The translations under genes and the position numbers were made by a program. Positions 11,880 to 59,793 of a stretch of 64,000 nucleotides of DNA are shown here, in pieces. The notes under the pieces are model-generated. The model searched no databases. It had not been told where the DNA came from and saw only the letters and a list, made by a program, of their open reading frames with translations. The DNA is from Geosiphon pyriformis uo1 (taxonomy: Eukaryota; Fungi; Glomeromycota): the NCBI GenBank assembly GCA_016748015.1, contig JAAOMT010000659.1:62001-126000 (forward strand), in the 5' to 3' direction. How positions within the stretch are numbered: position 1 is the first letter of the stretch; each line of letters begins with the position of its first letter.

Positions 11880-12300
11880 TCAATAAAATTTGCTTTAATT
11901 CCTTTTCCTGTTGATCTAAAACTATAAATTTCTCTCATTGTTTGTGTCAATTCCTCTCAATTTTCTACTGATACAAATTTTCCAACTTTTATTAATGGTA
12001 AGAAAATTGCTTGTGCAATTTTCTCCTTAGATTCAATGGTATAAGATTTTTTTGAATTGTTCTGTAGCAAAACCATCAAATTTCTAGTGTAATCAGAATT
12101 AATTACTCCTCCTTGAATGCTTATTCCTTTTTTCGCAAGGCTTAATCGCAACGCTATTTGGACCATTATTCCTGGCAGAATTTCAACCACTATTTTTAGG
12201 CCAATTTTTGTAATACTCTTGAGTGGCAATGTTATGGATTGGTCTTCTGGATACCGTAAATTGAATCTGGCATCAGTTGGATAGGCTCTTTTGAATACTA
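11880..12300 (-). pseudogene. dut: dUTPase domain in family-D pol
   Basis: RAYPTDARFNL, RLSLAKKGI, GGVINSDYTRNL, EKIAQAIF and downstream R..YSFRSTG correspond to decayed trimeric dUTPase motifs 1-5. Confidence 0.88.
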
Positions 12301-12543
12301 TTCCTAAGTGCCCATTGTTATAGTACCAGATACTAATCTTCTGATCTAGATTAGTATAGGCTAAAATATTTTCTGACTCAGAACCATCAGGTGAGTTTTG
12401 TTGATTTATTGATTGATTTTGGTACTGTTGATTCTTAATTTCCATTTTTTTTTCTAAGTCCTTTTTGTATTGACACTTTTTATAGTGCTGACTTTGGCAC
12501 AGAATAAGACAATCTTTGCAAAGGTAAGTGTTGATCTGAGCAA

Positions 12544-18352: not shown

Positions 18353-19002
18353 TGTTATGAGTTGAAATAACAAGCTAACAGATAGCAAAAGAGAACAAGA
18401 TTGTAGAACAATAAAAGAAATCAAAAAGAATTCAACTTTAAAGAGTGAATTGAATAAGTATAAATTCAATGTGTAAGATTAGTCTCATAAAATATCTCAG
18501 TTACTATGCTTTTTAAAAGATAATCAGAGAATCTAAAAATAGAAAGATAATCTGTATTGTCAACAAATAATCATGCCTGGTATAATTTTATGTCTTATAT
18601 TAACACTCTTAAAATTCAATATCAAGTATCAGATGTTCTTTTCAGTTATGTTTTATTCAATAATCTTCAAATGTTACAATTACACATTTTAGGAAAAAGA
18701 TAGAGAATAACCAATAAGTAATCTTTTATCTTAAAATGATCAGATACTTAAAGATAAGAAAAGAAAAATTAGTAAGAAGAGAAAAATTAAGATAAAGTTG
18801 TTATTTTATTTCTTTTATTTCTTTTATTTCTTTGATTCTTACATACATTTTTACAGCTAAGAGATTCATCACTTATATAGCTATCAAAAGTGATTAATGA
18901 TTAGATTAATAATCACTTTTTAAAAATAGAATGACTAATTATATGACATCAATAACTGATATATGTAATAATTAATAAGAAGTATAAGTTTCAACCATAA
19001 CA
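18353..19002 (-). repeat. LTR type B (5' LTR of B2)
   Basis: TGTTATG..CATAACA ends; homologous to 21872-22549 and 31873-32610; PBS adjacent. Confidence 0.93.
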
Positions 19003-22000: not shown

Positions 22001-22518
22001 GTTTCATAAAATATCTCTGTCACTATACTTTTCAAAGATAACTGGGGAATCTAAAAATAAAGAAATAGTCCATATTGTTAATAAATGATCATGCCTAGTA
22101 TAATTTTATGTCTTATGTCAGCACTCTTAGAATTCAATATCAGGTATTAGATATACTCTTTAGTTATGTTTTATTTAATAATTTTTAAATGTTGCAATTA
22201 TACATTTCAGAAAAAGTGTAAAGAATAACCAACAAGTAATCTTTTATCCCAAGATGTTTGGATATTTGAAGATAGAAAAGGAGGAATTAGCAATAAGAAA
22301 ATGATTGAAATAAAAGTTGTTATTTTATTTATTTTCTTTCTTTGATTCTTACATACATTTCTACAGCTAAGAGATTCATTGCTTATATAGCTGTCAAAAG
22401 TAGTCAATGATTAGATCAATGACTAGGTCAATAATCAAGTCAATGATCAAGTCAATGATCACTTTCTAAAAATAGAGTGGCTAATTTATGTGACATCAAT
22501 GGCTAATACATGTGATAT

Positions 22519-23175
22519 TTAATAAGAAGTATAAGTTTCAACCATAATATTATCCTCTCTAAAGAGACTAAGCTCTAGCAAAATCAAGCTATTTATAGTG
22601 TAATCTATTTGAAGGGTTTTATCTAACTCAAAACTAACTAGTTTGTTAAAGTCTTTTGTGAATAGAGTATATAACACTTGAGGCAAAATAAGTTTTGTAT
22701 TCAAGAAACCAAATCTTTGTATTAGAGTTTTGGCTTTTTTAGCAATAGTTAAAACTCTTGGGACATCTAATCATATAATGCCCAAAATTTCTGCCTGTAT
22801 TTCTGAAGTTGTTTTCTTCATGAGTTTCATATTCTCTATGATTTCACCAAAACAACCATAGAGTTCTAATTGTCTTTCATATGACAAGTTTTTGTTTATG
22901 AATAAGATTTCTTAGAGTGTTTTTTTAATTGTGCTGGAAGGTAGAAGCATAGTTGCTGTTATACTTTTTAACAAATATTTATCCATTTTACTACCAATTT
23001 TTTCTCTTTTGGTAATAGTTTTTTTTGGTCTAATAACAGTATGTGTTTTACTGTTATCAGTTATAGTGGTTTGTTTTTTAATAGTCAAAGTAGTATTTGG
23101 ATAGTTTTTGATCTAATATTCATGGAGAGTATAGAAGACATTTTGAATGTTTTGATCCAAAAAATAATTGTTCAT
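22519..23175 (-). pseudogene. Family-B ORF3, about 218 codons
   Basis: ATG 23175 MNNYFLDQNIQNVFYTLHEY*IKNYPNTTLTI is in frame with ORF 22519..22704; the stops seen are single-transition derivatives. Confidence 0.72.
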
Positions 23176-26100
23176 GTCGATTGAAGATATCTCTGTTTTG
23201 GGAATGATGCATTTATTTATACTTGATTTTTGCTAATCATTTGAGTCAGTATTACCACAACAGGCAACCAATTAGGTCATTTATGATATTTTTTGAGTCA
23301 TGTACCATAAACAAGACAATCATTGAAGATTGTTCTGGATTGATCTTGAAGAATATAAGAATCATTGTTTAAAATTTTGTTGACTATAAAGAGTCTTTTC
23401 CACTAGTTAGAAAATTTATCACCATAAATATTGTCTTTGTTTAAATGGTATTCCAATACCAAGTTACCAACACTTAAAGAAAGTGTTTTATAGGTTTTTT
23501 TTTTCTTAAGCTTTTCTTAGAACTGTTTTATCTTTTCAAAAGCAATTATTTATGTTTCTATCAAAGAGTTAAGAATAGTACCAAGTCTTCTTTGCAAAAT
23601 GTCTTTGTAATTTCTTATTGTGATCACTTCAAAGGGTATTGTCTTAATGTCAGTTTCTATTGGTAGTATTGTTATGCATTCATAAAGCAAATAAAAAAGT
23701 TCATAACTTGTTATGTCATAATTCACAGTTCTATAAGCAAATAAAGCTGAAGGCAGTATTTTGTCCCATAAGTTTGTTTCTTTACTGGTTTTGGTTAGGG
23801 TTTTATATAGTGTTCTATTGAAATATTCTACTAGGTCATTTGTTTGAAGATAATAAAAAGAGAAAAGTTTATGATGTATTCCCATTTTTTACAAAGTTTT
23901 TCAACCAGTGTATTGAGAAAAGCTTTTCCTCTATTAGATAAAAGTTCTTTGGGGCAGCTATAATGGCAAATAATATCTTCATAAATAAAATTGGCTATTG
24001 AAATTGCTGTTTGGTTAGGAGTGGCTCTTGCTTCTACCCATTTTGTAAAATAGTCAATAGCTGTAATAATGTATCTGTTGCCATCAAGAGTTATTGTTAA
24101 AGATCCAACAACATCTATACCAATTCTGTCAAATAGTTGATCAACAGAGATTGGATGAATATCTTTTTTGTGATTGGATTTGTCTTTTTTTTGGCAAATG
24201 TTACAGATTTTGATGTATTTAGCAATATTTTTTCTCAAGGTAAGCCAATAATAGCGAACTAAAGTTTTCTGAATTGTCTTTGTTTTTCCAAAGTGTCTAG
24301 CTAATGGGTCAGTGTGCATGTTATATATTATAATTTTTCTTTCTTCAAATCTGATGACTTTCTGGAAGTGGTCAGGATCTTTTCTGTTTCTTTTATATAA
24401 TTGGTTCTGGTGGATTAAATAGAAATTTAATTGTTTACACAAATGTTTTTTTTACTGTTAAGTGTATTCTAATGGGTATTGTTCTTTATCCAAAAATTCT
24501 ATTAAGGCAGAATAGTTGTCCAAGTCTATTATCATGTTTGTTTGTGAAGGAGTTACTAATAATTAAGTTGGTTTGGTTTGAGAAGTTGTACTATTATTGG
24601 ATGATAAGTTTAGAGAAAGTGTCAGCATTTTGATGATTTGCTCCTTTGTGGTGTTGAATATTATAGTCAAATTCATCCAAGTGGAGTATCCAGTGAATTA
24701 TTCATTTGTGTTCCAGCTTTTTTTTATTGCACAGCCAAACCAAGGCTTAATGATTTGTTACTACTAAGAATTTTGCACCAAAAAAATATTGATTCCAGTA
24801 ACTAGTAATTCAAACTACTGCTAACTATTCCTGTTTGGTAATTGAATAATTCTTTTCTGCTGGTGTAAAGAATCTACTGGCATATGCTATGACATATTCT
24901 CTGCTATTTTTATCTTTCTGTAAAAGAACAGCACCAAATCCATAGTCAGATATATTAGTGTGGAGGATGAAAAGTTGGTCCAAATTAGGTTGCTTGAGAA
25001 TTGGTTTAATAACAAGTTTTTTTTTTAGAATTTCAAAAGCTTTTTGTTAATGAGTGCCCCAGTAATAATTGACATTTTTCCTGAGTAGCTGATTGAAAGG
25101 AAAGGTGATTTTAGAAAAATCCTTGATAAATTTGCGATAATAAAAGGCCAAACCAAAGAAAGAGCATAGTTTAGGAACATTTATTGGTTGTCTAATGTTC
25201 TGAACTTTTTTAACTTTAGCTGGATCAAAGAAAATTTCATTTTTTGTAATAAGATAACCAAGGAACTGAGTGGATTGGCATCCAAAAAAAGATTTGATTG
25301 GGTTGATCTTGAGGGCAGTATTTCTGAGCAGGTCAAAAATCTTCTGTAAATGTTTAAGGTGTTTATTTCATGTTTTTGAGTAGACCATTATATCATCTAA
25401 GTAGACTAGAACAAAGTTTTCTTTTACTGATTCAAATACTTTGTCTATTAGGCATTGAAAAGTGAAAAAAACATTGGTAAGACCAAAAAGCATGACTGTA
25501 AATTCATAAATACCATACTTGGTGATGAAGGCAGTTTTCTTTCTGCTTTCTGGATCCATCTCTACTTGTCAGAATTCAGCAGTTAAGTCAATGGTTAAAA
25601 AGAAAGCAGCACTATTGAATTTATCTAACATTGTATCAATTTTGGGGAGTAGATACATGTCTCTTATAGTGATGGCATTTAATTGGTAGTAGTTAACACA
25701 GAAGTGTAGGGTTTTACCTTTTTTGAATACCACTACAACTGGAAAAGCCCATTCACTCTTGGTTTTTTATATGAATCCAAGATCTTTCATTTGGTTTATC
25801 TCTTTCTTAATAAACTCATTATTGCATTAATTGGATTAATAAGGCTTCAAATGGATGGAGTGAGTTTCTTTGATGGTGATGATGTGTTGTATTACATGGG
25901 TTTGTTCAAAGGTGTTATCTTCTTTTGAAATAACTGGGTTATTTCTAGCCAACAGATTTTCAATGTTTATTTTTTTTTCTTCAAAGGAAGGTTCTCTTTG
26001 TTCTATAACTAGTGATTGGATTTCAGGTGGTTCATTTTCAAAAAACTTTTGTACTTTTTTAAGTTTTTTTTGAGGTATCAAGCTAATTAGTTCTCAATCT

Positions 26101-28826
26101 TTGTAATTGATTAGGCAGGACTTGTATTCATCACTAGGGGAATACAAAAGTTTATTGCACCAGCACTTAGCATAAGGGCTATACCATCAATAACTATATT
26201 TTGCTTTCTTGCCAGGTTTTCTATTAAAGGTTTTTCTGAGAATATTATAATAGGGCCAGCAAATCAGCTTGCCATTTACCATAATTTCTTCTTTGTTAGC
26301 TTTAATTGTCCAGTGGCTTGCCATTGCTAGTAAAGATAGTATAAGTGAGTTCAGCAGTTTTTTCTTGCTCTTCTTGATCTTTATTATCATTGCTCTCATT
26401 ATCATCTGATTTATCTAATTGTTCTTTTTCTCGGTTCTGTTTGGTTACTGGAAGAGTTGTTCAATGATGGCATTTAACCACAATGGATTTTTTATCACAT
26501 CTGATTGTTAGCTCACAAAGTTTATAGTCAAGTAGTTCTTTGGCTTTCTTAAGCCACTCATTACCAACAATAATAGTATATTTTTTTGCTTTAGATACTT
26601 CCATGTCTGTTTCAATACTGATACCATTGATATGAACAGGAATAGCTTTGGCTATACCCAGACCTTTTTTTTTGTTACCATGTACATTGGTCATTGGCTG
26701 GATAGAAGGTTCATCAATTTTTCTTCTAATGGCTTCCAGAAAGTATTTGGCAATTACACTAACAGATGATCTACTGTTTAAGATTAAATCAATGAAATAG
26801 CCAGCCACTTGGGCTTTACAAATTAGAAGAGTAACATTGCTGTTGTTAACAAGTCCAACTTGACAAGAACACTTGTTGGTTTTTGGTGTCTTCTTTTTTG
26901 GTATTAAGGATTTGTAAAGATCTTTTCTGAACTGTAGATGAGTCATTAGTTGGCCAAATGTAATGTGAGCTGGGGTTTCCATAAGATCTTTAACAACAGA
27001 ATAGGGTCCAGATTTTTGTACAATTTCTGAGGGTTCTAACTTTAGAAGATTTTTAAAAACTTTAGCCTTTAGCAGCTTATTGTTATCAGCAGTTGATGTG
27101 GAGGCTTTTTTTGGATCTAAAATGAAATCAATCTTGGCTTTCTTCTTTTTTCTTGTTGATTCAAAAGTGTTGATTGCTAATTTATCTATGTCATGTTCAT
27201 CATTAGTTAAGTTAAAAGCATAAAAAGAGTTTTTTTCTGGTTGGCTTGTACTCTCACTCTTTGGAAATGTCCTTATTAGTTTAAAGGCTGATAAACAGTG
27301 GCTTCAACTAGGAGATTCTTTTCAAAAAAATTGATGTTGGCATAATTGGGTCTTTGGGTGAAGACATTGTTGTTAATGGTTCTGTTGTTTTGATTGTCAT
27401 TGTTTCTAGGAACTAGAGAAGGCAGGGGAAGATTGTTGCAATTTCTGGAGAAATGTTCAGTTAATCCACAACAATAATACACAGATGGGCCATGATTTTG
27501 TTGTTTTTGATAAGAGAGTTGTTGGGGCTGATTGAAGTGGGATTCAAATCTGGGTCTTTGGGATTGTTGATTTTCTCTAATTGCTTGAGCCAAAGATTCT
27601 AATAGCCAGACAAGATTTGCTGTAAACCTATCTATTAATTGTTCATTTGGATTTTGAGTTTGAGCAGTAAAAGAGATAGCAGCTATTTGTGGAACAGAAG
27701 CCATAATAAGAGCAAAAGCAAAAACTGGAAAAGTGAATTCCAAATGCATTTTTTGGTTATCTTTTATTCTTTGGGCAAATTCAATGGTCATATCCATTAT
27801 GAGATTGTTTTTCAAGACCAGAAGAGGCCAAAAAGTATATGATAGATTAGTTCTCAGTCCTTTTATAAAGGAATGTATTTTCTGCTCTTCTGTTTAATTT
27901 CTTCCAGAGTCTACCCATTTAATAAGTTTTTTTATTGCTTTGGCATATTCTGTCACAACCTCACCAGAGTTTTGAGTTCTTCTTTCTAATTCCATATGTC
28001 ATTTAGATATTAAGATAGGAGTTCTAAATTTTATTTCAAACTGAGTAGTAAAAGAGGTGTTGTCTTTTCCAGCATTTGCTGATGCCCATTTAATGATTCT
28101 TTGCTAAACATTGACATTTGTTTTTTGTAAGAACCAAGTAGCAAAAGAGCCTTAAAGATAGCCACCAACAATTTGGAACTTGTATTCATTATCATATTGG
28201 TTGGTTGTGACTGTTTTTTTAAAGTCATCTAACCATTCAATTGGATCTTGTGCATTACCTCTAAACAAGAGTAATAGAGTGTTGTTTCTTCTTTCCAAAG
28301 CAGTTTGTATGCCTTGGAGAGCAATCAGAATGTTCTGTTGTATAGAATCATTAGCCATTAGTTCAGAAGTTACTGTTTGAGTAGAATGATCTGATTTACT
28401 TGAAAAAAAATCAAAAACAGGAGCAGTTTGATAGCTTTCTTTTTCTGTTTCAAAGGGGGTTTCAGATAGCTGATGGGCAGCAATTCAAATGTGAATTTGA
28501 TGATTCAGGTATTCAGAATCAGGAGACTGTTGTTCAAAAGTTGTGGAATATAAAAGCTGATTGATATTGTTGTTTCTTTCTTCAAAGTTGTCTTCAAAAT
28601 AAGCTTGGTTAAAGTAATAGGTTGTGTAAACTGTATAGATTTCAGCTGAATGCTTGTTCAGGAACTAATTCCAAAAGTCTTGGAATTGTCTGCTAGATTG
28701 TTTTTCAATAAGAAAGCAAATCAAGCAGGAATGCAAAGAATTAAGTTTAATAAAGTCTAGATTATTTTTGTTATGTGCTTCAAAGTGTTCTTCTGATTGT
28801 TGTGGCAGGTATGAATAATTACCCAT

Positions 28827-31816
28827 TGTTACAGGTGATTATTTCTGTTGTTAAATTAAATAACAAATCTGTAACTTGGTGCTCAAAAGCTACTTCCGTT
28901 GATGATGTTCTGAAAGTGTTGTATCTGAAGGTTTTGATAGAGTTCTTTGTATAATGAACAGAGATTCACTAGTGTCAATAATAGATGTATCTTTCCAAGA
29001 CTTTTCCCAATTTTTTTCTCAGTGTGGTGGCTGGATTTAGTTTGGCAGTTGTGCCTTTTTAGTAAGCTATCCAATAATATATAAAATTCTACCCTTATTT
29101 CTGGGTCTTTTACCAGGCTATCCTTGACATCAATAACTCAATGCTTAATTTTTTAATCAATTAGTATACAACAATAAAATCACAAAAAGAAAGAAAATAA
29201 AATAAAGAAAATAAAAAATAAAAAAAATAGAGAAAATAAGCCAAGACAATTTGGTATGTTAGTATCTCATCAATAGCCGTGATTAAAAGCTATTGTTCTA
29301 GCGTGGTTAAGTATCAATTACTATTAACATGAAGTGTTGATAGTAGAGAGTGGGTTAAGATAGGAAATAATTATTTATTTAATGATTGGGAACTGGAATG
29401 TTGCTTAGATTAAATCTAAACTGAGAGGTTTAAACTAAAAGAGTTTTTTTTTTTTTTTTGTATTTTAATAATTATGATTTGTGAGTCTAATTGATTCTAT
29501 GAATCTAATTGACTCTGCAAATTAATTAACTCTGAGTCTCATTGACTAATTTTCTAACTTCTGATACTACTACTATATATACGTATTTGAGATTCCTCAA
29601 TTCTTCATGTCAGGAATTCTGGAATTCCTAAAATCTTGCAATTCCTTTAAGAGAAATTCTGAAATTCTGAAATCCTACAATTTCTTATACAAGAATCCTG
29701 AAATTCCTGGAATTTTGTAATTCCTCTGAGAGAAATTCTGGAATTCCATATTTACTACATCTACCTCTGATTGGCTAATTTATATGTTAATATACTTCCT
29801 ATATTCTATGAGTAACATTATTCCCTCCTTTAATATTGAGCTCCTGCGAAATTTTCTAAATCTCTCTTTTGTATCAATGTTGTTGCTGTAATTTTTATTG
29901 CTATTTGTAAATCTAATTTTATATGTGACTGGAGTTTTTAACTATAGTGATCTGTCCAGAATATCCATGTTCAAATCTTGCATCTGTATTATGTGCATGT
30001 TCAGACATAATGTCCTCATTATTATCACTGAATTGAATTAATTCCTGCTCCATTGTAAGATCTAGAAGTGTGATATATTGTTTAGTGTTTGAAGTGGAGT
30101 TTGAATCATTGTTGTTATTGTCAGCAGAGTTTAAATTGTCGTCATCGTCATCAGCAGAGTTTGAATCGGGATTAAGTTCTGATTCCAATTCTCGCTAATT
30201 GGCTCATCTTCCTCAGAGTTCAAATATATGATGCATGGAAGTGGATTGTGACTTGGGACCATCAGGTGAGTTTTGATGATTTGTTGATTGATTTTGGTAC
30301 TGCTGATTCTCAAATTCTTTTTTCTTCTCTAAGTCTTTTTCATATTGACACTTTTCCCAATGCTGACTTTTGGCATAGAAGAAGGCAGTTTTTGCACAGG
30401 TAAGTATGAATCTGGGTAGTTTTTTTTCTGGAATTCTTCCAACGGGTCTTTAAATAATCAGAGTTTTGAATTTCTAGAGGTTTGATGGGTTTTATCTGAG
30501 GTAAGTTTCTTTCTACATGAGCAGGATTGGAATTTTATCAGGTTTTGAATGTTCAGGTTTTGAACTATTGGGTCTTAAAGAATTGGAGTTTTAACAAGTT
30601 TTATCGGAGGTAAGTTTCTTTATATGATAGCAGGATTGGGATTATCGGGTTTCAAATAATTTTTGGAGTTTTTAATTTAACAAGTTTATCGAAGGTAATA
30701 GTAAAATAAGAATTTCATGAATCTTAAGTGATTTTTCCTTGTTTTCTCTTGGTCTGCCACTTTTGAATAGTTGTTAGTGCTGGTTCTCTGTAGAATTATA
30801 CTTCACAGAAAGTACCAAATGTTACAGGTGATTATTTCTGTTGTTGAATTAAATAACAAATCTGTAACTTGGTGCTCAAAAGCTACTTCCATTGATGATG
30901 TTTTGAAAGTGTTGTATCTGAAGGTTTTGATAGAGTTCTTTGTATAATGGACAAAGATTCACTAGTGTTGATAATAGATGTATCTTTCCAAGAGTTTTCC
31001 CAATTTTTTTCTCAGCGTGATGGGCGGATTTAGTCTGACAGTCATGCCCTTCTAGTAAGCTATCTGATAATATATAAAATCCTACCCTTATTTCTGGGTC
31101 TTTTACCAGGCTATCCTTGACATCAATAACTTAGCACTTAATCTTTTAATCAATTAGTATACAACAATAAAATCACAGAAAGAAAGAAAATAAAATAAAG
31201 AAAATAAAAAATAAAGAAAATAGAGAAAATAAGCCAAGGCAATTTGGTACATTAGTATTTCATCAATAGCCATGATTAAGAGCTATTGTTTCAGTGTGGT
31301 TAAGTATCAATTACTATCAACATAAAGTGTTGATAGTGGAGAGTGGGTTGAGATAGGAAATAATTATTTATTTGATGATTGGGAACTGGAATGTTGCTTA
31401 GATTAAATCTAAACTGAGAGGTTTAAACTAAAAGAGTTTGTTTTTTTTTTGTATTTTAATAATTATGATTTGTGAATCTAATTGATTCTATGAGTCTAAT
31501 TGACTCTGCGAATCAATTAACTCTAAGTCTCATTGACTAATTTTCTAACTTCTGATACTACTACTATATATACGTATTTGAGATTCCTCAATTCCTCAAT
31601 TCTTTATGTCAGAAATTCTGGAATTCCTGGAATCCTGCAATTCCTTTGAGAAGAATTCTGGAATTCTGGAATCCTGCAATTCTTTATACAAGAATCCTGA
31701 AATTCCTAGAATCTTGTAATTCCTCTGAGAGGAATCCTGAAATTCCACATTTACTATGTCTACCTTTGATTGGCTAATTTATATGCTAATATACTTCCTA
31801 TATTCTATGAGTAACA
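28827..31816 (-). mobile_element. Non-autonomous LTR element (two ~990-bp A2-type LTRs, ~1 kb internal mosaic)
   Basis: LTRs 28827-29817 and 30820-31816; TSD CCAT/TCAT; PBS 30801-30817; PPT 29818-29832; internal region contains only scraps of pol. Confidence 0.93.
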
Positions 31817-34565: not shown

Positions 34566-35526
34566 TATTACTGAAGATTTTTGGTTTCTTTTCTTGAATG
34601 TTATTAATGTTTGTCTGTTGCTAATTTTATGTTTTCTGGAAGCAGTTGAACTCCCAATAACTGAATTTATTTTCAAATTATCTTTTATAATTTTAATTGC
34701 TGAGCTTATATATAAAATGGCCAATTCTATACCAGTTACTTTGTGTAATTACATTGTAGTAAATGTCAACTTTTTCTTAAGAATTACTTGTCTGGAAGCT
34801 TACTAAAAATGTGTAGTTACTTTGCTGTAAAAGTTAACCCTTCTACAGAAATTTTGTCTGTAGGCTACCCTAATGATTATAATAAAAATAAAATAAAAAT
34901 AAAAAAATATAAAAGAAATAGAATCCTAACAAAGAAAATGTTTTTTATTCAGGCCTGGAATCATTAACAGGTTACTAAAATTGGTAGCTAATCAATTTCA
35001 AAATTTTAGTTGTGTTGAGGGAATTTCAAGTGTAATGATCAAAAAATTTGGTTTTTCAAATATTTAATTTTTATTTAAAATATGTAAAAAGTGATTTGTT
35101 CTAATTAAGATATCTAAAGTAAGATACTATGATAAGATACTATGGAAAGATATATTTTCTTGAAGAGAAAAGCTTTTTTTTTATACAACTTGTTGTAATA
35201 CTAGTCTTTGAACTTGCACTTTTTTCTTTGCTTTAATTTTGGTAAACTAAAGATAAATTTTGGTGAATTACAAGTTATTTCTACAAACTATTGATTATTT
35301 CGGCCAATTTTCATCAATTTCGGCGAATTTTGACTATATTAAATGGTTCAGGGTATTGTGTAATTTGATCATCTTAATTTCTATAGTACAAATCGGGAAT
35401 AATGATATTTGATAATTTGGTTAAATAATAAGTAATAATTGAAATAATAATAATAAATGCTAATTAATAATAGGAATTATGAGGATAATTTCATGCTAAT
35501 TAATAGCTAAAATTCTACAAGTAACA
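34566..35526 (-). repeat. LTR type C (5' LTR)
   Basis: T(A)TTACTG..GTAACA ends; homologous along its length to solo LTR 58822-59793. Confidence 0.85.
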
Positions 35527-35661
35527 ATGACTATAAATGGTTTGCACCATACAAGCCGAATAACCGCTCACATGATATTTTTTATTTCATAATATATTAA
35601 TGACGTAATAATATTTTTTGACCCTGGTCGTTATATCATATAAAATCACGTTAACTTTTGC

Positions 35662-36817
35662 ATGGCAAAAGTGATCGGCGTAATCATGACTTCTCACGAC
35701 GAACTCGACCAATTAAAAATCTTTTTACAAAACGAACCCTTAAATAAAATTACTGTTGCTAGAGCCTTTCATGAACTATGGAAGTGTAAAGATGTACAAA
35801 CGGAAGAAAGTGATTCTAACTGTCTTTTGGAGGTCTTTAAAGAGTTGACTGCAGAAACTCTAAATAGTGATAGAAAGGAATACTTCACTTCCTTACAAGA
35901 TATAGACAAGGTACATGTAATTCACTAATATATGTTGTTTTTATAGATATGAGGATAATATAAATTGAACCACTCGTTAGTCGGTTAATCATTTGCGGGA
36001 AGTTTCAGCTTTTGTATTACTGGATATGAAGAAGATCTGTAAGCGGTGGTGACTGGCCATAAGCCATTTGCGAGAAGTTTCAGCTTTATATTACAGTATA
36101 CAAAGGAAGATCTGTAAGCGGTGGTGACTGGCCATAAGCCATTTGCGAGAAGTTTCAGCTTTTGTATTACTGGATATGAAGAAGATCTGTAAGCGGTGGT
36201 GACTGGTCATAAGCCATTTGCGAGAAGTTTCAGCTTTATATTACAGTATACAAAGGAAGATCTGTAAGCGGTGGTGACTGGCCATAAGCCATTTGCGAGA
36301 AGTTTCAGCTTTTGTATTACTGGATATGAAGAAGATCTGTAAGCGGTGGTGACTGGCCATAAGCCATTTGCGAGAAGTTTCAGCNNNNNNNNNNNNNNNN
36401 NNNNATACTAAATTGTATAACATATTTGGAACTTGTTTATACAGGGTGAGAAATGTGGCATAAGGAAGTTAAGAAAAGGTGCTCTGATAGAGAGTGTGTG
36501 TGTAAATTACGTTACGAAAAGAAACGAAATTCAAACCCGGTGCAAATTCGTCATTGCACCTTCAGAAACGACAAGGCACGAGAACTGGGTTGAGGGCGAA
36601 GACGACAGAGCACAAATAGCAACAAATATAACAGACACTCTTCTGCAAGAAATTAAGAGGAATGTTCTTCATAAAATTTCCAAAGCTTCAGAGAATGCTC
36701 TCGTAGACGTTGTGGCACGTCTTATGGAGGCGTCTATATATCAAATGCCAATTGGCTTGGATATCGAAGTAACAAAAAATGATCGTCAAAGTGATGCCAG
36801 CAAAAAACGAAAAAATC
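35662..36817 (+). CDS. Hypothetical multi-exon gene inside the TIR element (partial, gapped)
   Basis: ATG 35662, open to donor AAG|GTACAT at 35911; candidate acceptors TAG 35946/35980; a second open segment ~36443-36817 ends DRQSDASKKRK at an N gap. Composition is coding-like. Confidence 0.55.
35990..36384 (+). repeat. 75-bp tandem array with alternating A/B variants (150-bp higher-order unit)
   Basis: CATTTGCG at 35990, 36065, 36140, 36215, 36290 and 36365; ~54 constant nt plus a 21-nt segment alternating between two versions; ends at an N gap. Confidence 0.95.
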
Positions 36818-37211
36818 NNNNNNNNNNNNNNNNNNNNNNNNNNNNNNNNNNNNNNNNNNNNNNNNNNNNNNNNNNNNNNNNNNNNNNNNNNCTCCGAAGA
36901 AGATTCTACTATCAGAACCCCATAAAAATAGAATTTTAATGCGAATCTTTTTTAGGATATTTTTTATTTGTACCAGTTGTTTCGGCAACATTTTTACTGT
37001 GTAAATAAAACAATGACACATATTTAATGATTTGAAGTATTAAAGGGACGTATGGTGCAAACCATTTATAATCATCAAAAATGTAGATCAGTTCGAAATT
37101 TTAAATGATGATTTTCACGTGTTTTTATTTATATAATTAAATTTTATTGGTTAATATACATGTGTTTTTAATATATTTATAATAAAAAATAATATAAAAC
37201 CAAATACAGTA

Positions 37212-40202
37212 TTACAAAGTTTGAATATTATTTAATTTGTCTAATTCTTCAAAAATATTATTCGGAATTCTTCTATGAGATTTATACTTTTTTATAGCAT
37301 ATTCTACTAATTTTCTATTAAGACCTTTTCTATAAAGATTCATATAACACCAATATTTTCTTGAAAATTGTCTAATAGTTATTAAAAATACTGATTCAAG
37401 ACTTTTAGACACTGTTTTTTGTAATTCTTTCCATGAATAATTGCATTTTTTACATATATATCTTTTAGCAGCTTCCCAATATCTTTCAATAAAATTTAAT
37501 TTGCAATAAAATTTTGGAAAAAAAATGCACTTATGTCCCATACTTTCGATTAATTCTTTAATTGTATTTTTTTGAACAAAAAAATCAGATTCCAAAGATA
37601 TTACTCAACATGCACAACAAAAAACTCTTGAAAAATCTTTGATTTTTTCTTTGCATTTTTGGCATTCTAATACTAATCCTTTTGATGGCCATTTTTCTCA
37701 TTTTATTAATACTTGTTTAATTTTTTTAGGCAATCCTCAAAGTTTTTTATCTGAATATGTTTCTGGAAAGATTATTGATTGTAATTAATTATCTAATCCT
37801 AAAAAAGTATCTTACATTAATAATTGCTTTCCACTTAGACTTAAATTCATTCTGCTTACAATTAAAGTATCTTTACTAAATGCTACATAATTAGAGCTAT
37901 TATTAAAAACAAATACAGCTGTTGTTACTCATAAAAAAAACAGATATAGAAAATAATAGACCAATAAGAAAGTAGTAGTTAGCACATAAGCATATTGCTC
38001 AGCAATGTGAAGTGATATTAGAAAATTAGGGCACATTGCTCAACAATGTGAATATTGCTCAAGAAATCATAGCACATTGCTTGGGAATGTAAGCAATCTT
38101 ATAGAACATCAATTATGTATATATAGCAGTAGCATTAGAAAAAAAAAAGACAAACCTCCCAGTTTAGATTTGATCTGAACAGTCTTTGATATCACAAATA
38201 CTAATAAATAATTATTCACTATCTTAATTTATTTCCACTATTAATACTTCATGTTAATAATAATTAATACTTAACCATACTGAAACAATAGCTTTTGATT
38301 ACAGCTATTAATGGAATATTAATCTTTATTGCCTTGGCTTATTCTTTTAATTTTCTTTATTTTCTGTTATTTTTTTTGTTATTTCTGTTGTTTTCGAATT
38401 ACTAAAAGATTTAAAGTGCTGAGTTATTAATATTAGAATATAGCACTGATAAAAGACCCAAGAATAAAAGTAGACACTCAGATTTGAAGATAGCTTATCA
38501 GGAGATTGCCAGCTATTATACCAAGAAAAAAATTGACGGAATTGCAATTCCAAAAGTAATAGACAACAACTACTTAATTTGTAGGTTGACATATAAAACA
38601 TCATTAAAGAAAAACCACCTTAAAACCTCTGTCCATTATACAAAAAACTCCATTAAAATTTTCAGATAATCAAAACTCTCAAATATTACTAATGAAAAGA
38701 AATATCAAGCACCAAGTTACAGTTTGTTATTTGACTTAAGACACCAAATAAACATCTGTAATACTGTACAATCTGAATATAATTTCTCAAAAATTGGAAT
38801 TGCTTTATATTTAATTTGTTTAAAAAGATAGTCTGTTATCCAATAACTATCTTGATTTATACCAGATTGCAAATAGCATCTTGCCTCTTCTGGTATATTA
38901 AAATAATTTTTTATATTATTTTGTTGTAAATATAAATGTCCATTAATTTCAGTTAAAAATTTACTGACCATAATTAATCTTCTATTTCCTTTTTTTCTTA
39001 GTGGCAAATTTTCATGCTCAGCCCATATGCTATACTTGCCATTATTTGAATAAAAAATGCATTTATTATAGATTACAAGAACTTTTTTTTTTCTATTAAG
39101 TAAGTTAGAACATATTTGATCCATAAATTCATCTTTATATTTTGACATATATTTTTTATGCTCATATATTTTTTCTAAAAATTTTTTTCAAAATTACAAG
39201 ACATTATTTTTTTCATGTTTATTATAATATAAGTCTTAATAATATTGTTAAAATAAATAACTAAGAATTTTGAGTCATCTTACTGCAGTTATAAAACTAA
39301 TTGTTTTTATTATTATTATTCTAATATTAAAAAACAATTTATGTTTGATGAATTTTTTAAATATGATTGAAGTGGCATTGAAGTTTTGGTTTCTAATTCA
39401 AATATAACATCTTTTTGCAATGTTTTAATCATCAATTATTCTATTTGTTTTTTGGTGTTTTCTATGTTTTAATGTTAGAAACTTATTATTAAGCAACCAA
39501 TACTTTGCAAAATATCAAATTTTTTGTGCTTTTTATATACTACTATTAATAAAAATCTTTTGGGCAATTTTCAAACTGGCATTAAATTTTTTATATTCAT
39601 TATTATCATTTAACAAAGTAAGATATTCAAAAATAACTCTTTTTTAATTATATTTGAAAACAATTAACTGAACATGTTGTTTTTCTAAATGTTTTTTTAA
39701 CTTTTGCTTTTTTTTTATTTGATTAGCATACAGATCAATTTTACTTTTTGAATTGCTTAAAGATTCATTAGATTTAGACTATTATAAGTCTGTAGTTTAA
39801 GCATCACTAATATTAAAGAAAGTGATAATTTTTTTAGTTCTGGCTGCTGCTTTAATAAATAAACTATTTGGTCTATATTTATTATAATAGGTTAACTTTG
39901 GTATTTTTTTATTATGTAAAAGCCTTACTTTTTTTTTTTAGATAATTGTTATTTTTCTATACTAAACTGAGTTTTTTTAATTTTGTATTTATTCTAATTG
40001 TGGTTTTTATATCTTCTATATCATTCCATCTACTGTTATTATTGTTGTTTTACTTTCTATTACAAACATTCAGTCTGTTAAATTTATTTACTTCAATATT
40101 ATGATCATTTATTGAAGTGGTATAATATGTTTTTTTATATAATTTTTTTGTATTTCTAACTTGATCTTTAGCTTTTTTTTTTTCTTTAAAATGAAGTGGC
40201 AT
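37212..40202 (-). pseudogene. Decayed IS630/Tc1/mariner-like DDE transposase, interrupted by a solo LTR
   Basis: Motifs VIYNKCIFYSNNG (HDE-type), LRKKGNRRLIMVS, AVFVFNNSSN, CQKC..CCAC, FFPKFYCKLNFIERYW, KKYKSHRRI. Probable ATG at 40202. Confidence 0.8.
37923..38763 (+). repeat. Solo LTR type A1 inserted in the transposase
   Basis: TGTTACTC..GTAATA ends; perfect TSD CTGT. Confidence 0.93.
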
Positions 40203-41549
40203 TTTTTTATGTAATGTGATATTAATCTAATATGTAATTAATGCTTAGACAAAATTAAAGAATTTGAACCATGTAATGTTGTACAACAAAATTGTATTAC
40301 AATAGAAATAGTGTTTTTAACTCAGATATATATCTATTCTTTAAATTTTTTTAGTTCCAATTTAAACTTTAATTTCTGTTTTGTAGTTTTGAATAAAAAA
40401 CAATCAAAAAAAGCTCTTTTAAAATTTATCAAAAAAAAATTTTTATTGAATTAAGAAGATTATTTGAGTCGAAAATTCAAGTAATATTAATAAAAATAGT
40501 TATCATAAAAACTTTTTTGACTTATAACAAGAAATTTGGACAAAAAAGTCTAACATTAACAATTAAACAATCAACTTAAAAGAAACTCAATTTTTAAATT
40601 GAAGCTGATTTTTCAAAGCTGATAAAAGATTTATTGCATATAATTATTAATCAAAAAAATAATAGGTAAGGATATTTGAAATAGATTTCAATTTTAATAT
40701 TACAGCTTAGTTGTAATCTTTCATTTTCATATTCAATAGTTAACAATATGCCGAATTATTTAAAAATTTTGTCCAAAATATTATATTATTATAATGTGAA
40801 TACTTATTTTGAATTTACAAATAACTTTTCAATGACTATAATGTTGCATTTCAAAGAATTGCTTGGATCTAAGAGATATACAAAATTCTCTATAATAAAA
40901 GTTTCTGGTTAAATTTAATATTTGAATGATAAATTATACCAAAGAGAAATATAATGACTAAAATATCTATTATATATTCGACTAAATCATGATCTAATTT
41001 TAAAATTGGTTTTTTAGGCTGTAAAAAAATTTTGATTGTTGAATATTTCAACAACTTATTAGAATGTAATATATAATAGCTTATCACAATAATCAAGAAA
41101 CTTATATTAGTTAGTGTTAATTTAGGAGAATTAGGTTGAAATTAAAAAATTTTTGGCTTTATTTTGATTGAAAGAACTGAAGTTGTCTTAAAGCCCATAA
41201 TTTTGAATAGCTTTTTTTATTAGTGTTGTATATTTTCTAATAAGTTTATTTTAATGCAAAAAATATATGAAATATATTAGTTTAAGTAAATAAAACCCAG
41301 ATTTTTTTGTAAAAACCTAATAAACTTCTCACTTATAAGAATTTGACATCTTTGAAAATGCATAAATTATCATTAAAATACATGGCATTTTCAAAATTAA
41401 TTGCAAGTTCTGATTGAATTTATAAATAAATGATATTTTTTTCGAATTTTCTACTAATATAATGTAAAAAACATATGCTAAGTATTAAATAACCAATGAA
41501 AAAGAAATGCATAGTACCAACTTCAATTATGTTTAAAAATCTTGGTTTT

Positions 41550-43342
41550 TTGATTACATCATAATATTCTGGATATTTTTTTTTGGACAGTAAATCTATA
41601 AATAATTCGGCATATTGTTAACTATTGAATATGAAAATGAAAGATTACAACTAAGCTGTAATACTAAAATTGAAATTTATCTCAAATATTCTTATCTATT
41701 ATTTTTTTGATTAATAATTATATGCAATAAATTTTTTATCAGCTTTGAGAAATCAGCTTTAATTTGAAAATTGGGTTTCTTTAAAGTTGGTTGTTTAATT
41801 GTCAATGTTAGATTTTTTTGCCCAAATTTCTTGTCATAAGTCAAAGAAGTTTTTGTGGTAACTATTTTTATTGATGTTACTTGAATTTTCAGCTCAAATA
41901 ATCTCCCCAATCTCAATAAAAATTTTTTTTTGATGAATTCCAAAGGAGCTTTTTTTGATTGTTTTTTATTCAAAACTACAAAACAGAAATTAAAGTTTAA
42001 ATTGGAACCAAAAAAATTTAAAGAATAAATATATACCTGAAATAAAAACACTATTTCTATTGTAATACAATTTTTTTGTACAACATTACATGGTTCAAAT
42101 TCTTTAATTTTGCCCAAACACTAATTACATATTAGATTAAAATTACATCAAATAAAAAAATGCCACTTTATTCTAAAGAAAAAAAAATAGCAAAAAATCA
42201 AGTTAGAAATACAAAAAGATTATATAAAAAAACACATTATACCACTTTAATAAATGATCATAATATTAAAGTAAATGAATTTAACAGACTGTATGTTAGT
42301 AATAAAGAGTGGGGCAACAATAATAACAGTAAATAAGATGATATAGAAAATATAAAAACTGTAATTAGAATAAATACAAAATTAAAAAAACTCAGTTTAG
42401 TATAAAAAAATGACAATTATCTAAAAAAAAGAAGTAAAGTCCTTACATAATAAAAAAATATCAAAGTCAACCTATTATAATAAATATGAACCAAATAGTT
42501 TATTCACCAAAACAACAGCTGGAACTAAAAAAATTACTACTTTCTTTAATATTAGTAATGCTTAAACTACAGATTTACAATGATTTAAATCTAATAAATC
42601 TTTAAGCAATTCAAAAAGTAAGATTAATCTGTATGCTAATCAAATAAAAAAAGAACAAGAATTAAAAAAACATTTAGAAAAACAACATGCTTAATTAACT
42701 CTCTTCAAATATAATCAAAAAAAAGTTATTTTTGAATATTTTACTTTATTAAATGATAATAATAAACATAAAAAAATTAATGTTAGTTTGAAAATTACAC
42801 AGAAGGTTTTTATTAATAATAGTATATGAAAAGCACAAAAAATTTAATATTTTGCAAAGTATTAGTTGGTTAATAATAAGCTTCTAACATCAAAACATAG
42901 AAAACACTAAAAAACAATTAGAATAATTAATGTCATATTTGAATTAAAAAGCAAAACTTCAATATCACTCCAATCACATTTAAAAAATTTATTGAGCATA
43001 AATTGTTTCCTAATATTGAAATAATAAAAGAAAAAACTATTAGTCTTATAACTGCAGTAAGATGGCTCAAAATTCTTAGTTATTTATTACAACAACATCA
43101 TTAAGACTTATATTATAATGAACATAAATAAAATGATGTCTTGTAATTTTGAAAAATATTTTTTGAAAAAATATATAAGCATAAAAAATATATGTTAAAG
43201 TATAAAAATGAATTTATAGATCAAATATGTACTAACTTACTTAATAGAAAGAAAGAAAGAGTTCTTGTAGTCCATAATAAATGTATTTTTTATTCAAATA
43301 ATAGCAAACATAGCATATGGGCTGAGCATAAAAATTTGTCAC
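41550..43342 (+). mobile_element. Second, inverted and truncated copy of the DDE transposon (5' part)
   Basis: Reverse complement of ~39001-40800, with a small internal deletion; ATG 42160; ORF 43192 LVVHNKCIFYSN; cut by an LTR at 43343. Confidence 0.88.
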
Positions 43343-44271
43343 TATTACTCATAAGAAAAACATATAAAAAAAATAGAAAGAAAACAGATAGACCAATATT
43401 ACTTATAGAAATATAGAGAATATATATATTAGCATAGTTATTAACCAATCAGAAGTAGACGTAGTAAAATGTGGAATTTCAGGATTTTTCTCAAGAATTG
43501 CAGGATTCCAGAAATTACAGGATTCTCACAAGGAATCACAGGATTCCAGAATTCCAGAATTCCTCTCAAAGAAATTGCAGAATTCCAGGAATTCCAGAAT
43601 TCCTGTAGTGAAAAATTAAGGAATTGAGGAATCTCAATTATGTATATATAGCAGTAGGATTAGAAGCTAAAAAGACAGACCTCTTAGTTTAGATTTCATT
43701 TAGACAACTTTCCAAACCACAAATAAATAACTGTTTGTTATCTCAAACCCACTGCCACTATCAACACTTTATGTTGATAGTAATTGATACTTAACTATAC
43801 TGGAACAATAGCTCTTGATCATGGTTATTGATGGAATACTAACTTGCAAATTGCCTTGGCTTATTTCTTTTTTTTCTTTATTTTCTTTTTTTTTCTTTAT
43901 TTCTTGTCTTGATTTTATTGTTGTTTACTAACTCTATTGAGAATTAATGTGTGAGGTACTAATGTCAGAATAAACATGACTGGTAAAAGACCCAGAAATA
44001 AGGGTAGAACACTCGATTGAGGATAGCTTACCAGAAAAAATACCGGCCATCAAGCTGAGAAAAAAATTGACAAAACTGCGGTTTCAAAAAGCTACAGATA
44101 AAACTATTACCATTGAATCTCTGTTTATTATACAAAGAACTCAACTAAACTCTTTAGATACAAATCTTTCAGACATAAATCTTCAGATTACTATCAACTG
44201 CAACTAGAGTTGAGCACCAAGTTATGGGTTTGTTATCTAATCCAACACCAAAACTAGTCACCTGTAACATT

Positions 44272-47300: not shown

Positions 47301-50300
47301 TGGACTGACAACAACCAAAGTGAGATGCCACCAATTCTAGATTGGGAAGAAAAAAACAAAGAAAAAGGAAAAGGAAGGGAAGAAAACATACTTGAAGAAA
47401 CCACCACTACAGAAGAAATAACTAGTGGCTGGGAAAGGGAATATTCATGTGAACCAATAAAAGAGCCACCATATATACCTCTCAAATGCAAGGACTGTGA
47501 GAAAAAACTGTCTTCAATGGGAGCTTGGGTAGTGCCAAATAAAGACTACTGGATGCAAATCCATTACTATTACAAGCCTTGCCATAGAGAATGATATGAC
47601 TACCCAAAAAGACAAGGCAAGTGGGACAATGAACCATGTCTTGCTTGCGGTAAACAATTACTCAATGAAAAAATGTGGAATAACATTTCTGGTTGAGAAG
47701 AAATGTGTGACACTTCGTGCCAATACACAATCCTCATCAGTAATTGGATGAGTCATAGTATGCCTATTATAGCAGCATGGCACCAAGTTATATCTTGTCT
47801 AAATGGCTATTCACACGATGAGAACAAAATCTGGCAAATGGTCAATGTTAAAGTAGAAGGCACTTTGCCCAGTAAAATTCTGGAGATCAAAAATAACCCT
47901 CCAGAACCAACAGACATTGTTTTGGTTCTCAACCCGGACGCCTTTATTGACTTAGAAAACAGCCCAGAAGAATTTCATAAACACTATCAGAATTTAACAC
48001 CCATAAGAGAAGAGCAAAAGCAATGCTTGGAAGAAATCAACACCCAATTATGTGACTACTGTTTGATTCCATGTAACTTCCAATTCTGTGATGATTGTAA
48101 TCTTATCTACAATCCACCACCACACATGATCTACACGATTTCCGAAGAAAAAAAACCAATCAACAGCTGTGCATCAAAATCAAAATTGAGTTCCAACCCT
48201 GATTTAAACTCTGACAACAATGATAATGAAAATAATAGTTCCAGTTCTATTCAATATAACTATAATAATGACAATAATTCCAACTCAGATTCAAACTTCG
48301 ATTTAAACTATGAACAATATATTGCACTCCCTGATCTCACCAAGAAACAAGAACTAAAATGATTCAGTGATAATAATGAAGCTATTATGCTGGAACACAC
48401 ACATGATACTAATGCTGGATTTGATTTGAAGTATCCAGGAAAAGATGCCATTAAATTGAAACCATATTTGCACATCTGCATAGATCTTAAAATAGCTTTG
48501 GAAATTTTAGCAACAACAATAGTTCAACTAGCTTCAAGGAGTAGTTTAGTGAAAAGAGGGATAAACATCAAAGAAGGAATAATTGATGCAAGATATATAA
48601 GAAATATTATTGCTATACTACAAAATGACTCAGAAAAGGCCTATGTTATAGAGCCAAATGAAAGGATAGCACAGACAATATTCCTGCCTCTGGTTAAAAT
48701 AGCTCAGTTAGTGTTAGTAAAAAATAAGGAAGAATTAGGGATAACAGCAAGAGGGATACAGAGATTTAGATCAACGGATAGAATAAATGTACCAGTTAAT
48801 ATGGTGGAGAAAAAAATTATTGGCCAAAGAGAAATTATTTCAACCAGTCAAACAATTTCCATTCCACTAAATAGCCAATATATGTTAGCAATAAAAAGGA
48901 AAGAGAAAGAGCAAGAACAGATTTTTGAAGCAGAAACAATCCTTTGTGAATCAGAAGAAATTGAACTTATCAATTTACATATACTAGCCAAGAGCCATAA
49001 CCATATCAAAATTTCTATCTAGAACAACACCAGAAATGTTGTAGAAATACCGGAAGGAACCACTCTTAGATATTTAACCATGGAAATTAAAGATCAAGCA
49101 CCAAGCAGCATTCCAGATTTTCCACAGCTTTGTGGATATGTGGATATTACATTACAAACCATCTACAGACTAAATGAATGTTATCTGTTACAGCCAAAAC
49201 AATTGAAACAGATGAATATGAGAAATCTAGACTCACTTCAACAGATACAACTAAAAATGTTACTCAATAATTTCAATGACATCTTCACCAGTGAAAATGA
49301 ATTTGGCAGAACTGATATTATCCAGCATCAGATCAAAACTGGAGATGCAATGCCAATTAAACAGCAAACATACAGAGTACCACCAGCCAGCCATGAAATC
49401 ATCCATCAAGAGATCAACCAAATGCTTGACAATGGGTTAATTCAGTCATCAATGAGCCCATGGTCATTACCAGTAGTACTCATCCATAAGAAGAATAAAA
49501 AAATCCAATTTTGTGTAGACTACAGGAAACTCAATAGTGTAACTCATGGAGACAACTATCCAATTCCACAGATACAAGAACTATTTGACACTTTTGGTGG
49601 AAACAAATGATTCTCAATGTTAGACTTAGATAGTGGTTACTGGCAAGTAGTCATGGATCCAGCCAACAAAGAAAAAATGGTGTTCACCACAAGAGGGAAA
49701 ACTTTGAGTTTGAAGTTATGCCATTCAGCTTAACCAATATTCCAGCTATATTTCAACAGCTAATGAAAATTGTGTATACTGGCTTATTGTGGAAATCAGT
49801 AGTTGTATACTTGAATGATACCAATGTGTTCTCAAAAACATTGATGATTATCTACATCATTTTCAACAAGTGTTCAAAAAACTATGACAAGCAAGATTAA
49901 AATTGAATGCAACAAAGTGTTTTTTTGGCAAAACAAAACTAAAATTCTTGGAACACATAGTTAGCAAAGACAGCATAAAAACAGATCTGGAAAAAATAGA
50001 GATAGTAAAGAACTTTCCAATACCAACCAACGTAACTGAGCTGAAATCATTCTTGAGATTTGCGAGCTATTATAAACACTTTATAAAGAACTTTTCAAAG
50101 ATAGCACAATTACTCAATGATTTTTAAACCAAAAATGCAAAGTATGAATGGACTGAAACCCAGCAAGAAGCATTTGACATCTTAAGAAGAAAGCTTATTT
50201 AAGCTCCAGTATTGATTTATCCAGAACATAGTAAACTATTTATTATTACCACTGATGCATCAGGTCAAGCATTGGGAGCAGTATTATCTTAGAGAGAACC

Positions 50301-58700: not shown

Positions 58701-58821
58701 GGATATTACATTACAAACAATATACAGACAAGAAGAATATTATCTGCTCCAACCAAAACAATTAAAACAGATAAACTTGGAAAATTTAGACTCATTACAA
58801 TAAGCTAAAGATATTACTCAA

Positions 58822-59793
58822 TATTACTGGAGGTTTTTGGTCTCTTCTTAGCTCTTGTATGTTTGTTGTAATGCTGTTAATTCACGACTTATGGGAAGTG
58901 TTTAAATCTTTGATAACTGAATTTTATCTTCAAATTATTTTCTATAATTTGAACTGCTGGGCTTATCAGTGAAATGGCCAATTTCGTGTCAGTTGCTTTG
59001 TGTAGTTATGTTGTAGTAAATGTCAACTCTTTTCCAGGAATTGCTCATCTGGAAGCTCACTAAAAATGTGTAGTTACTTTTCTGTGAAAGTCAACTCTTC
59101 TATAGGAAGCTCATCTGTAGGCTACCCTAATGATTATAAGAATAAAAATAAAGAAAGAAAATAAAAGAAATGTAAAAAAAATAGAATTCTGTCAAGAAAA
59201 ACGTTTTCTATCCAGGTCTGGAGTCACTAACAGTTTATTGAAATTGGTAGTTAATCAATTTCAAAACTGTTTAGTAGGAATGGGTTAATTTCAAAAAGGA
59301 AATAATTAAAGATTTGATTTTTTGAATTATTTGACATTTATTTCGTTTTTGTGTAAAGAATGATTCTAATTGTTAAATCTGAAGTAAGATATATTTTCTC
59401 GAAGAGAGAAGCTCTTTTTTTATACAACTTGTTGTAACACTATTCTATGAACTTGAACTTTGCTATTTTTTTTAATTTCGCTAAACTAGAGATACATTTT
59501 GGCAAACTACAAGTTATTTCTGCAAACTATTAGATATTTCGGTGAACTATCAATTATTTCGGCAAATTTCTACAAATTTCAGCAAACTTTTTGAATATTA
59601 CATAGTTCAGGGTATTGCATGATTGATCATTACAATTAGGTTATATTTGTGTTATGTACAAATTGGGTTATTAATTAAATGATAATTTCGGATATTTTGC
59701 TAATGTAATAAGTGATAATTTGAAATGCTAATTAATGATGAATTATAAGAGTAATTTTATGCTAAGCAATATCTCTAATTTCATCTGGTAACA
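58822..59793 (-). repeat. Solo LTR type C
   Basis: T(A)TTACTGG..GGTAACA ends; perfect TSD TCAA; removal restores pol as at 49255-49290. Confidence 0.92.

Follow-up and report, generated by a model that had tools for sequence, protein, structure and literature searches.

IS26 is a bacterial system in which movement is driven by an active IS26 transposase. In the part of the KolobokP report by Kojima and Bao (2022) available to us (PMC9587614), internal-internal junctions with a single target copy are described, and a circle and nuclease-induced recombination are proposed to explain them. A third system of relevance is the CR-REase domains of Crinkler-like proteins, which the accessible portions of PMC5289972, PMC6131194 and PMC11342252 tie to transposon origins; the CR-REase work of Zhang et al. 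2016 is also cited by PMC12957317. Crinklers are defined there by an N-terminal ubiquitin-like header with an LxLFLAK/LxLWKV-type motif (PMC6131194), and a tyrosine-recombinase family reported from the same fungi is unrelated, as far as the text of PMC13465315 available to us goes. The locus studied here lies in the window, by which we mean the whole 64,000-nucleotide stretch of Geosiphon pyriformis DNA that was analysed, and carries a single nuclease gene in a module between what are most likely Tc1-like ends. It works most like KolobokP yet is not a member. The literature searched, outside Repbase and most subscription journals, describes neither the nuclease family nor the arrangement, and the supplements of Zhang et al. 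2016 may already include the family.

The most conspicuous feature of the locus is an exact 21-bp inverted pair (35532-35552 and 37050-37070), which grows to 26 bp with one mismatch (35527-35552 and 37050-37075). At up to 3 mismatches the 21-mer has two matches only in the window, and shuffled sequences gave a mean of 0.01 with 0/100 reaching two. Between the repeats (35532-37070) the CpG observed/expected ratio (o/e) is 0.97 compared to 0.15 window-wide. The two 1-kb bins at 35001-37000 have values of 1.04 and 0.87, the maximum among the remaining 62 bins being 0.41, and the remaining window is decayed Gypsy and DDE sequence of about 28% GC. The perfect inverted ends and the sole CpG-rich, undecayed stretch, both of which had been claimed from the letters of the window, are thus confirmed. 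The neighbours of the module have CpG o/e values of 0.18 (37053-40850) and 0.29, and the retention leaks beyond the repeats on both sides, albeit in small counts (four CpG within the final 300 bp of the LTR, another four in the DDE element's first 550 bp). The high CpG o/e is no proof of youth, because an expressed, unmethylated gene would likewise retain CpG. In Rhizophagus irregularis most TE loci are highly methylated, and expressed TEs and coding genes less so, according to the available part of PMC8647823.

The layout of the locus is a DDE tip (35527-35549), TA, the module (35552-37050), TA and a DDE element from 37053, with the following features.

34566-35526, plus strand: decayed Gypsy-type LTR, 72% to the copy at 58822-59793; both finish with the same 6 bases.
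35527-35549, no strand: left arm, a putative 23-bp Tc1-like DDE tip facing the module; reverse complement of 37053-37075 with one mismatch.
35550-35551, no strand: TA at the left junction, likely a Tc1/mariner target; the same TA as in the organism-D junction.
35552-37050, plus strand: nuclease module, 1499 nt as assembled, CpG o/e 0.97, with the organism-D junction.
37051-37052, no strand: TA at the right junction; start of the high-copy family, with a depth step at about 37050.
37053-40800, minus strand: decayed Tc1-like DDE element; its 3' tip (37053-37075) is the right arm, and its right boundary is approximate.

The right repeat is with high probability the tip of the adjacent high-copy Tc1-like DDE element, and the repeats are accordingly reassigned to the neighbours of the module. 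TA is the target dinucleotide of Tc1/mariner elements. In run X1 the depth rises about 20-fold, from 943 (36976-37049) to 22,221 (37050-37123), and remains at 18,500-31,000 up to 37400, into the Tc1-like ORF; contig depth is not copy number, and only the position of the step was used. For the mixed bin at 37018-37072 (8,684), a family start at about 37051 implies 19,360 compared to 18,333 in the next bin, and a start at 37067-37071 would imply 71,000-213,000. Position 37051 is the first or last one matched in contigs of three organisms, A, B and C (X1 record 7, X4 record 29 and X8 record 29), and in X1 record 7 this position is preceded by 71 other letters. The repeats are very probably not the module's own TIRs, because the high-copy family runs outward from the right repeat, not inward. 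The sequence-only reading had described a TIR element with its own TIRs, and on present evidence this is contradicted by the depth step and by the contigs breaking at the TA at 37051. Tc1-like transposase remnants were detected at 37212-37604 and 38717-39187, the flanking element matched DDE_3 with an E value of 3e-4, which is under the Pfam cut-off, and the flanking ORF is 64-73% to transposases of Rhizophagus and others, one of them labelled as a Tc1-like DDE domain.

The left repeat is most likely the same tip, of which the old Gypsy LTR, with its exact end, has left 23 bp; its assignment to the DDE family is one that we infer from the right arm. Behind 35526, 11 contigs part from the window (agreement 0.49). 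The left-end contig of X1 (record 1), with one mismatch and 5 unaligned letters, still matched the tip about 5 bases past the 21-mer, and it is likely a second left flank of the same tip kind in organism A. The flanks seen are thus two on the left and one on the right, all of which fit a transposon tip. The far end of the Tc1-like element and the remainder of the left element were searched for and not found, and viral contigs and GTDB genomes gave no independent confirmation of the terminus of the Tc1-like family. A far-end tip at about 40820-40850 was rejected, as the best local score in 37301-44000 equalled the shuffle mean (112/200 and 170/300 shuffles reached it). The left LTR as a solo LTR with a target duplication was rejected as well, and a joint from 35458 to 37124 in X1, from one contig with a 24-letter side, was set aside, as it did not recur in a second comparison, for which the stretch started at 35478.

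Several other features were observed around these flanks. In organism B a contig (X5 record 20, at 37067-37102) carries a variant tip that has the arm's first bases in common and a longer middle, and both tip versions, this and that of the window, hold a small hairpin. Decayed copies of the Tc1-like element's 5' part lie at 38999-40786 and, inverted, at 41573-43344 (1.8 kb, 88% identical), in divergent orientation, and an LTR-like repeat at about 37930-38760 with many paralogues in the window splits the Tc1-like transposase gene. At 58822-59793 a solo LTR, of the same family as the LTR at 34566-35526, sits within the pol gene of a Gypsy element and is apparently flanked by a target duplication of 4 bp. 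Judged by motifs, we take the segments 11957-12667, 48363-49022 and 57928-58803 to be Gypsy remnants with a dUTPase-like segment upstream of the reverse transcriptase. A 449-bp unit at 4485-5362 occurs in two identical (100%) copies on either side of a 20-nt N gap, which is probably a scaffolding artefact.

The nuclease gene occupies the module in several exons, two gaps of N letters included.

35686-35910, plus strand: exon 1; its Met is the start in homologues P0002 and P0008, and spliced contigs have the donor after 35910.
35990-36384, plus strand: tandem array in intron 1, with 5.3 or more units of 75 bp.
36385-36404, no strand: N gap 1, 20 nt in the assembly; its true content is about 0.6 kb, made up of introns and the exons of about 94 aa.
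36445-36817, plus strand: large exon, the helical lead-in to the nuclease core, stopping just before the PD motif.
36818-36891, no strand: N gap 2, 74 nt in the assembly; it contains the catalytic core (about 160 aa) and is truly about 0.56 kb or longer.
36893-36925, plus strand: end of the last exon, stop at 36923-36925; its C-terminal decapeptide is the same as in P0001 and P0206.

There is an upstream in-frame ATG at 35662, and the homologues begin at the second Met instead. The first gap was sized from the genomic copy L002 (97.8% identical) and from organism-B contigs, which have 608 letters compared to 279 in the window; the second is entered by X1 contigs by 445 and 148 letters, and about 160 residues are required according to homologue P0206. 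With both gaps corrected, the true size of the module is estimated at 2.5 kb or more. The contig evidence comes from 7 of 24 listed runs, under four organism labels (A-D). Contigs with exon-exon joints or without introns were found in X2, X3, X8 and X13, which shows transcription and splicing of the gene for organisms A, C and D; as the library types of the runs were guessed or unrecorded, this call rests on the joints themselves, in which 35910 is followed either by the next exon or by 35981, and the hidden exon by 36445, a spliced joint at 36444 supporting the acceptor of the large exon. The earlier claim of an intron-containing ORF was therefore right. Over 170 nt, two variants in X2 and X3 differ at 8 positions, which means two or more copies or alleles in organism A. 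The copies split around the start codon (35679-35701) into four distinct upstream sequences, and P0206 is 63% identical in exon 1, its cluster-mate P0001 being 91% in the large exon, which suggests that the 5' ends of the nuclease genes may be recombinant. Two soil copies about 98% to the window, L002 (from about 1415) and L003 (from about 310), have the same break point in the nuclease domain; both are interrupted there by the same unrelated sequence, and both have small indels.

The protein is a predicted PD-(D/E)xK nuclease with a restriction-endonuclease fold. A search with the large exon gave 15 hits among 142 candidates (Cetraspora P0001 91%, Paraglomus P0002 85%, Ambispora 74%, Dentiscutata 73%), a search with P0008 as the query gave 52 homologues out of 3,848 candidates, and a profile search gave 350 clusters at E<=0.001 in 1.84 billion proteins. 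Every named homologue belongs to Glomeromycota, which makes an arbuscular mycorrhizal fungus the likely host; 7 distant clusters that were looked up are of the same phylum, and the ESM Atlas matches were to unnamed Mucoromycota clusters only. Contigs of the same organism prolong the exon at 36817 into R-Q-V-S-G-S-R-G-N-K, up to the K preceding the PD motif, and L003 (97.7% identical) and the homologues proceed with P-D-L-M...E-S-G-K. The catalytic residues of the window itself fall inside the gap, and the motif, which is E-S-G-K and not E-x-K, is taken from L002 and L003 at about 98% identity. In an alignment of 46 homologues (A2) the P is conserved in 39/42, the D in 38/42, the E in 40/43 and the K of a later helix in 39/40.

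In the AlphaFold model of homologue P0008 (pLDDT 76.9) the N-terminal half is helical, residues 1-112 being all helix, and the C-terminal domain is alpha/beta. Foldseek with this model gave no matches at E<=0.001. The top two rows of a wide structural search are mitoribosomal proteins (Z 11.2), followed by the nucleases DrdV (Z 9.8, rmsd 2.9, 143 aligned) and BpuSI (Z 9.8, 3.9, 159), below them NucC (Z 7.5) and NgoMIV (Z 7.4), and then EcoRI, SgrAI and others; the nuclease-domain rows are mostly restriction-type nucleases. The fold alone shows no activity, because the two best rows are mitoribosomal proteins. No Pfam family was found above the cut-off for the two window exons, for 7 homologues or for 34 further homologues. 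The protein had no match in the PDB by sequence, the viral contigs had no match for protein, arm, transposase or intron core, and the GTDB genomes had none for protein or arm. The sequence-only reading had guessed at a PD-(D/E)XK domain, and the PD...E motif of the homologues and the predicted fold agree with it. The peptide it quoted lies in the exon at 36445-36817, where the homologues continue with P-D, and the diagnostic residues do fall inside the N gap, as seen through L002 and L003. Its view that the gene is not of DDE type also held, since the full-length homologues have the restriction-endonuclease fold and no Pfam family. The protein is no Crinkler, a possibility that this reading had raised: the N-terminus is all-helical, and CRN families were hit by none of the 7 and none of the 34 homologues scanned, two sets with no protein in common.

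Beyond the window, the only junction of the module ends was seen in organism D. In a 49-nt contig (X13 record 15) the match to 37018-37053 is followed by 13 letters that repeat 35553-35565 exactly, so that the right end of the module is joined to its left end across one TA, without transposon ends. The evidence for this head-to-tail junction is one short contig in one of 7 runs, probably of cDNA, and the join could be mimicked by reverse-transcriptase skipping of a hairpin. Its depth is 106 compared to 51-69 in longer body contigs, and the X13 contigs do not cover 37054-37125, the arm and right flank. Such a junction is what is expected for a circle, for a tandem array or for a site before the insertion of a DDE element. 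The arm motif was found in 0/3 related loci (L001-L003), of which L002 and L003 end before the ends of the module, and in L001 another ORF lies about 190 nt past the stop. Among the homologues, 10/54 gene models extend into the adjacent DNA; 9 of these enter a single AM-fungal family, the tenth enters a family also found downstream in L001, and therefore the gene elsewhere is not bounded by TIRs. Nuclease genes of distant subfamilies repeatedly have members of the same two AM-fungal gene families, both unnamed, as neighbours, in these homologues:

P0010, P0011, P0014, P0015, P0018, P0026, P0048, P0051, P0052, P0139 and P0032, and in L001 at 1742-2276.

This hints at a possible larger multi-gene island around the nuclease genes.

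The array in intron 1 has units of a 45-nt GT...AG core and about 30 nt. With units of L001 the core shares 38/45 and 40/45 positions, whereas elsewhere the large exon is 68-71% and intron 2 56% to that locus and the 3' UTR is at shuffle level. The period of the array is 75 bp in the window and 64 nt in L001, and because of the conserved core and the unequal period the constraint is non-coding. Between subfamilies the 45-nt core and the last about 90 bases of intron 1 outconserve the large coding exon (L001:52-160; L002:1-300). An alternative acceptor at 35981, used in X3, opens into the array, where the frame hits a stop. The array is likely a cis element, acting perhaps as a non-productive splicing switch or as protein-binding sites. 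A search for RNA structure in the intron core gave covariation in 0/11 pairs (5 sequences) and a z of -1.88 for the array, and an Rfam scan of the region and two loci gave no match. A CRISPR-like reading of the array was dropped, as the 30-nt spacers are homologous to one another.

Across organism labels the DNA identity is 91-96%, introns and 3' spacer included, the intron DNA being 94-96% identical. In a quick tree of 37 rows (36/54 homologues and the window exon) the window groups with Cetraspora and Paraglomus (SH-aLRT 96), and its 9-row clade mixes several orders, to which the members presumably belong as we have assigned them. The synonymous and non-synonymous differences are equal in the small counts at hand (4/4 compared to L002, 2/2 compared to L003). 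A transfer of the module between AM-fungal orders can be suggested from these comparisons as a lead only, with paralogy and assembly contamination as alternatives. An intact module amid decayed neighbours and the high identity across labels speak for recent movement, while the CpG edge that is not sharp, the expression of the gene and the lower methylation of expressed TEs speak against it.

We see an even chance that the nuclease module is internal cargo between the inward-facing ends of two Tc1-like DDE elements, in a KolobokP/IS26-like manner. The module would natively be head-to-tail, as a tandem or a circle; after insertion of a Tc1-like copy into the TA of the spacer, the unit of module and transposon would recombine or transpose to give the DDE-TA-module-TA-DDE order. 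The nuclease might assist if it cut the transposon ends, or close to them, and so set off recombination, though no finding marks the predicted nuclease as a transposase. The direct orientation of the two DDE copies is assumed, and the whole unit is spanned by no contig. What speaks against a composite is that the flanking DDE copy is decayed and the module intact, a mismatch which simple co-movement leaves unexplained. This mismatch in decay (CpG o/e of 0.97 compared to 0.18 and 0.29) would suit a mobile module without TIRs, in which the nuclease cuts the end-TA-end palindrome of two abutted Tc1-like ends and a circle integrates, duplicating the TA. Without the module, the site would form a perfect palindrome of about 38 bp, which a restriction-type nuclease would presumably take as its substrate; the junction retains one TA, the catalytic D and E are conserved, and the Cetraspora/Paraglomus grouping and the intron identity across labels would fit as well, as would the tandem dimers of DNA transposons that are common in Drosophila (10.1101/158386, in its available part). 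Nevertheless, we consider this unlikely. No empty palindromic site was seen in the contigs or the window, where a hypothetical empty site with both outer flanks joined matched only the flanks, the LTR paralogue and short chance hits; these searches for copies and empty sites covered contigs and the window. Nor did they show an empty allele of the kind that a homing endonuclease cleaves before repair copies it in. Furthermore, the CpG boundary is not sharp, other subfamilies lie in multi-gene neighbourhoods, and the literature searched gave no eukaryotic precedent for integration by a lone PD-(D/E)xK protein. The fuller version, in which such an element circularises at the TA, spreads between AM-fungal orders and regulates itself through the intronic array, seems to us similarly improbable.

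An old and static array, that is, an expressed tandem nuclease gene with one Tc1-like insertion in a spacer, amplified long ago and with nothing mobile now, is likewise a doubtful explanation. CpG would then survive since the gene is unmethylated, in line with the lower methylation of expressed TEs and coding genes in R. irregularis (available part of PMC8647823) and with the spliced contigs in organisms A, C and D. The leak of CpG into both neighbours, the near-adjacent locus numbers of P0008 and P0012 on an equal-sized contig and the cutting of the left tip by an old LTR (72% to its paralogue) point in the same direction. On the other hand, the high intron and UTR identity across labels, the clade mixing fungal orders and the equal synonymous and non-synonymous differences, in small counts, agree better with recent copying than with long purifying selection, and the likely second left flank in organism A also speaks against such an array. 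By far the least probable is the young cut-and-paste element of the sequence-only reading, with its own 21-bp TIRs and the nuclease as transposase, even though perfect repeats do lie near both ends of a single non-DDE nuclease-fold gene and organism A has two or more variants (8 differences/170 nt). The high-copy family takes in the right repeat and extends outward, the outer bases are inverted copies of each other and not a direct target duplication, and the arm motif is absent from L001-L003, though L002 and L003 stop before the ends. Of what this reading expected, the protein was found to be non-DDE, but none of the contigs showed a copy whose outer flanks are unrelated.

It seems that the locus holds a lesson for TE annotation, as a gene may lie between perfect inverted repeats that are in fact the inward-facing ends of the elements beside it. 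The proposal linking eukaryotic restriction-like (CR-REase-type) nucleases to mobile DNA also gains a concrete locus, which offers defined junctions, a candidate palindromic target and an expressed, intact, Pfam-less family with relatives in several AM-fungal orders. Should junctions of transposon ends be what the nuclease cuts or targets, it would be a transposon parasite of a kind that has no match in the literature searched; in case the module is cargo only, it would be a fungal counterpart of the KolobokP/IS26-type composites and a route of gene movement among AM fungi.

Compared to AM-fungal Tc1/mariner DDE elements, one of these is the flanking neighbour that starts at the TA, and the nuclease module lies outside its transposase gene. 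With type II restriction endonucleases and NucC the protein shares the core fold, at about 10% identity and here with no methyltransferase partner. The CR-REases are similar in having a restriction-endonuclease fold and in being a multi-copy AM-fungal family, as far as the accessible parts of PMC5289972, PMC6131194 and PMC11342252 describe them. In contrast to them, our protein has no ubiquitin-like header, no NTPase or kinase partner and no Pfam family, and its N-terminal half is all-helical. The likeness to the translocatable units of IS26 is cargo between two DDE copies and a circular cargo-bearing form (PMC9587614, available part), whereas the locus here is eukaryotic, its adjacent DDE copy is decayed and the sole junction seen is without a DDE element. 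KolobokP, in the same available text (PMC9587614), has a nuclease-bearing internal unit between repeats with their own TIRs and the internal-internal junction with one target copy, for which the counterpart here is a single contig of organism D. However, the flanks of KolobokP are LTDRs of 450-660 bp and its internal unit carries a DDE transposase and a His-Me nuclease (PMC9587614, available part), whereas at this locus tips of a separate Tc1-like family, with TA, form the flanks and a single PD-(D/E)xK gene makes up the internal unit.
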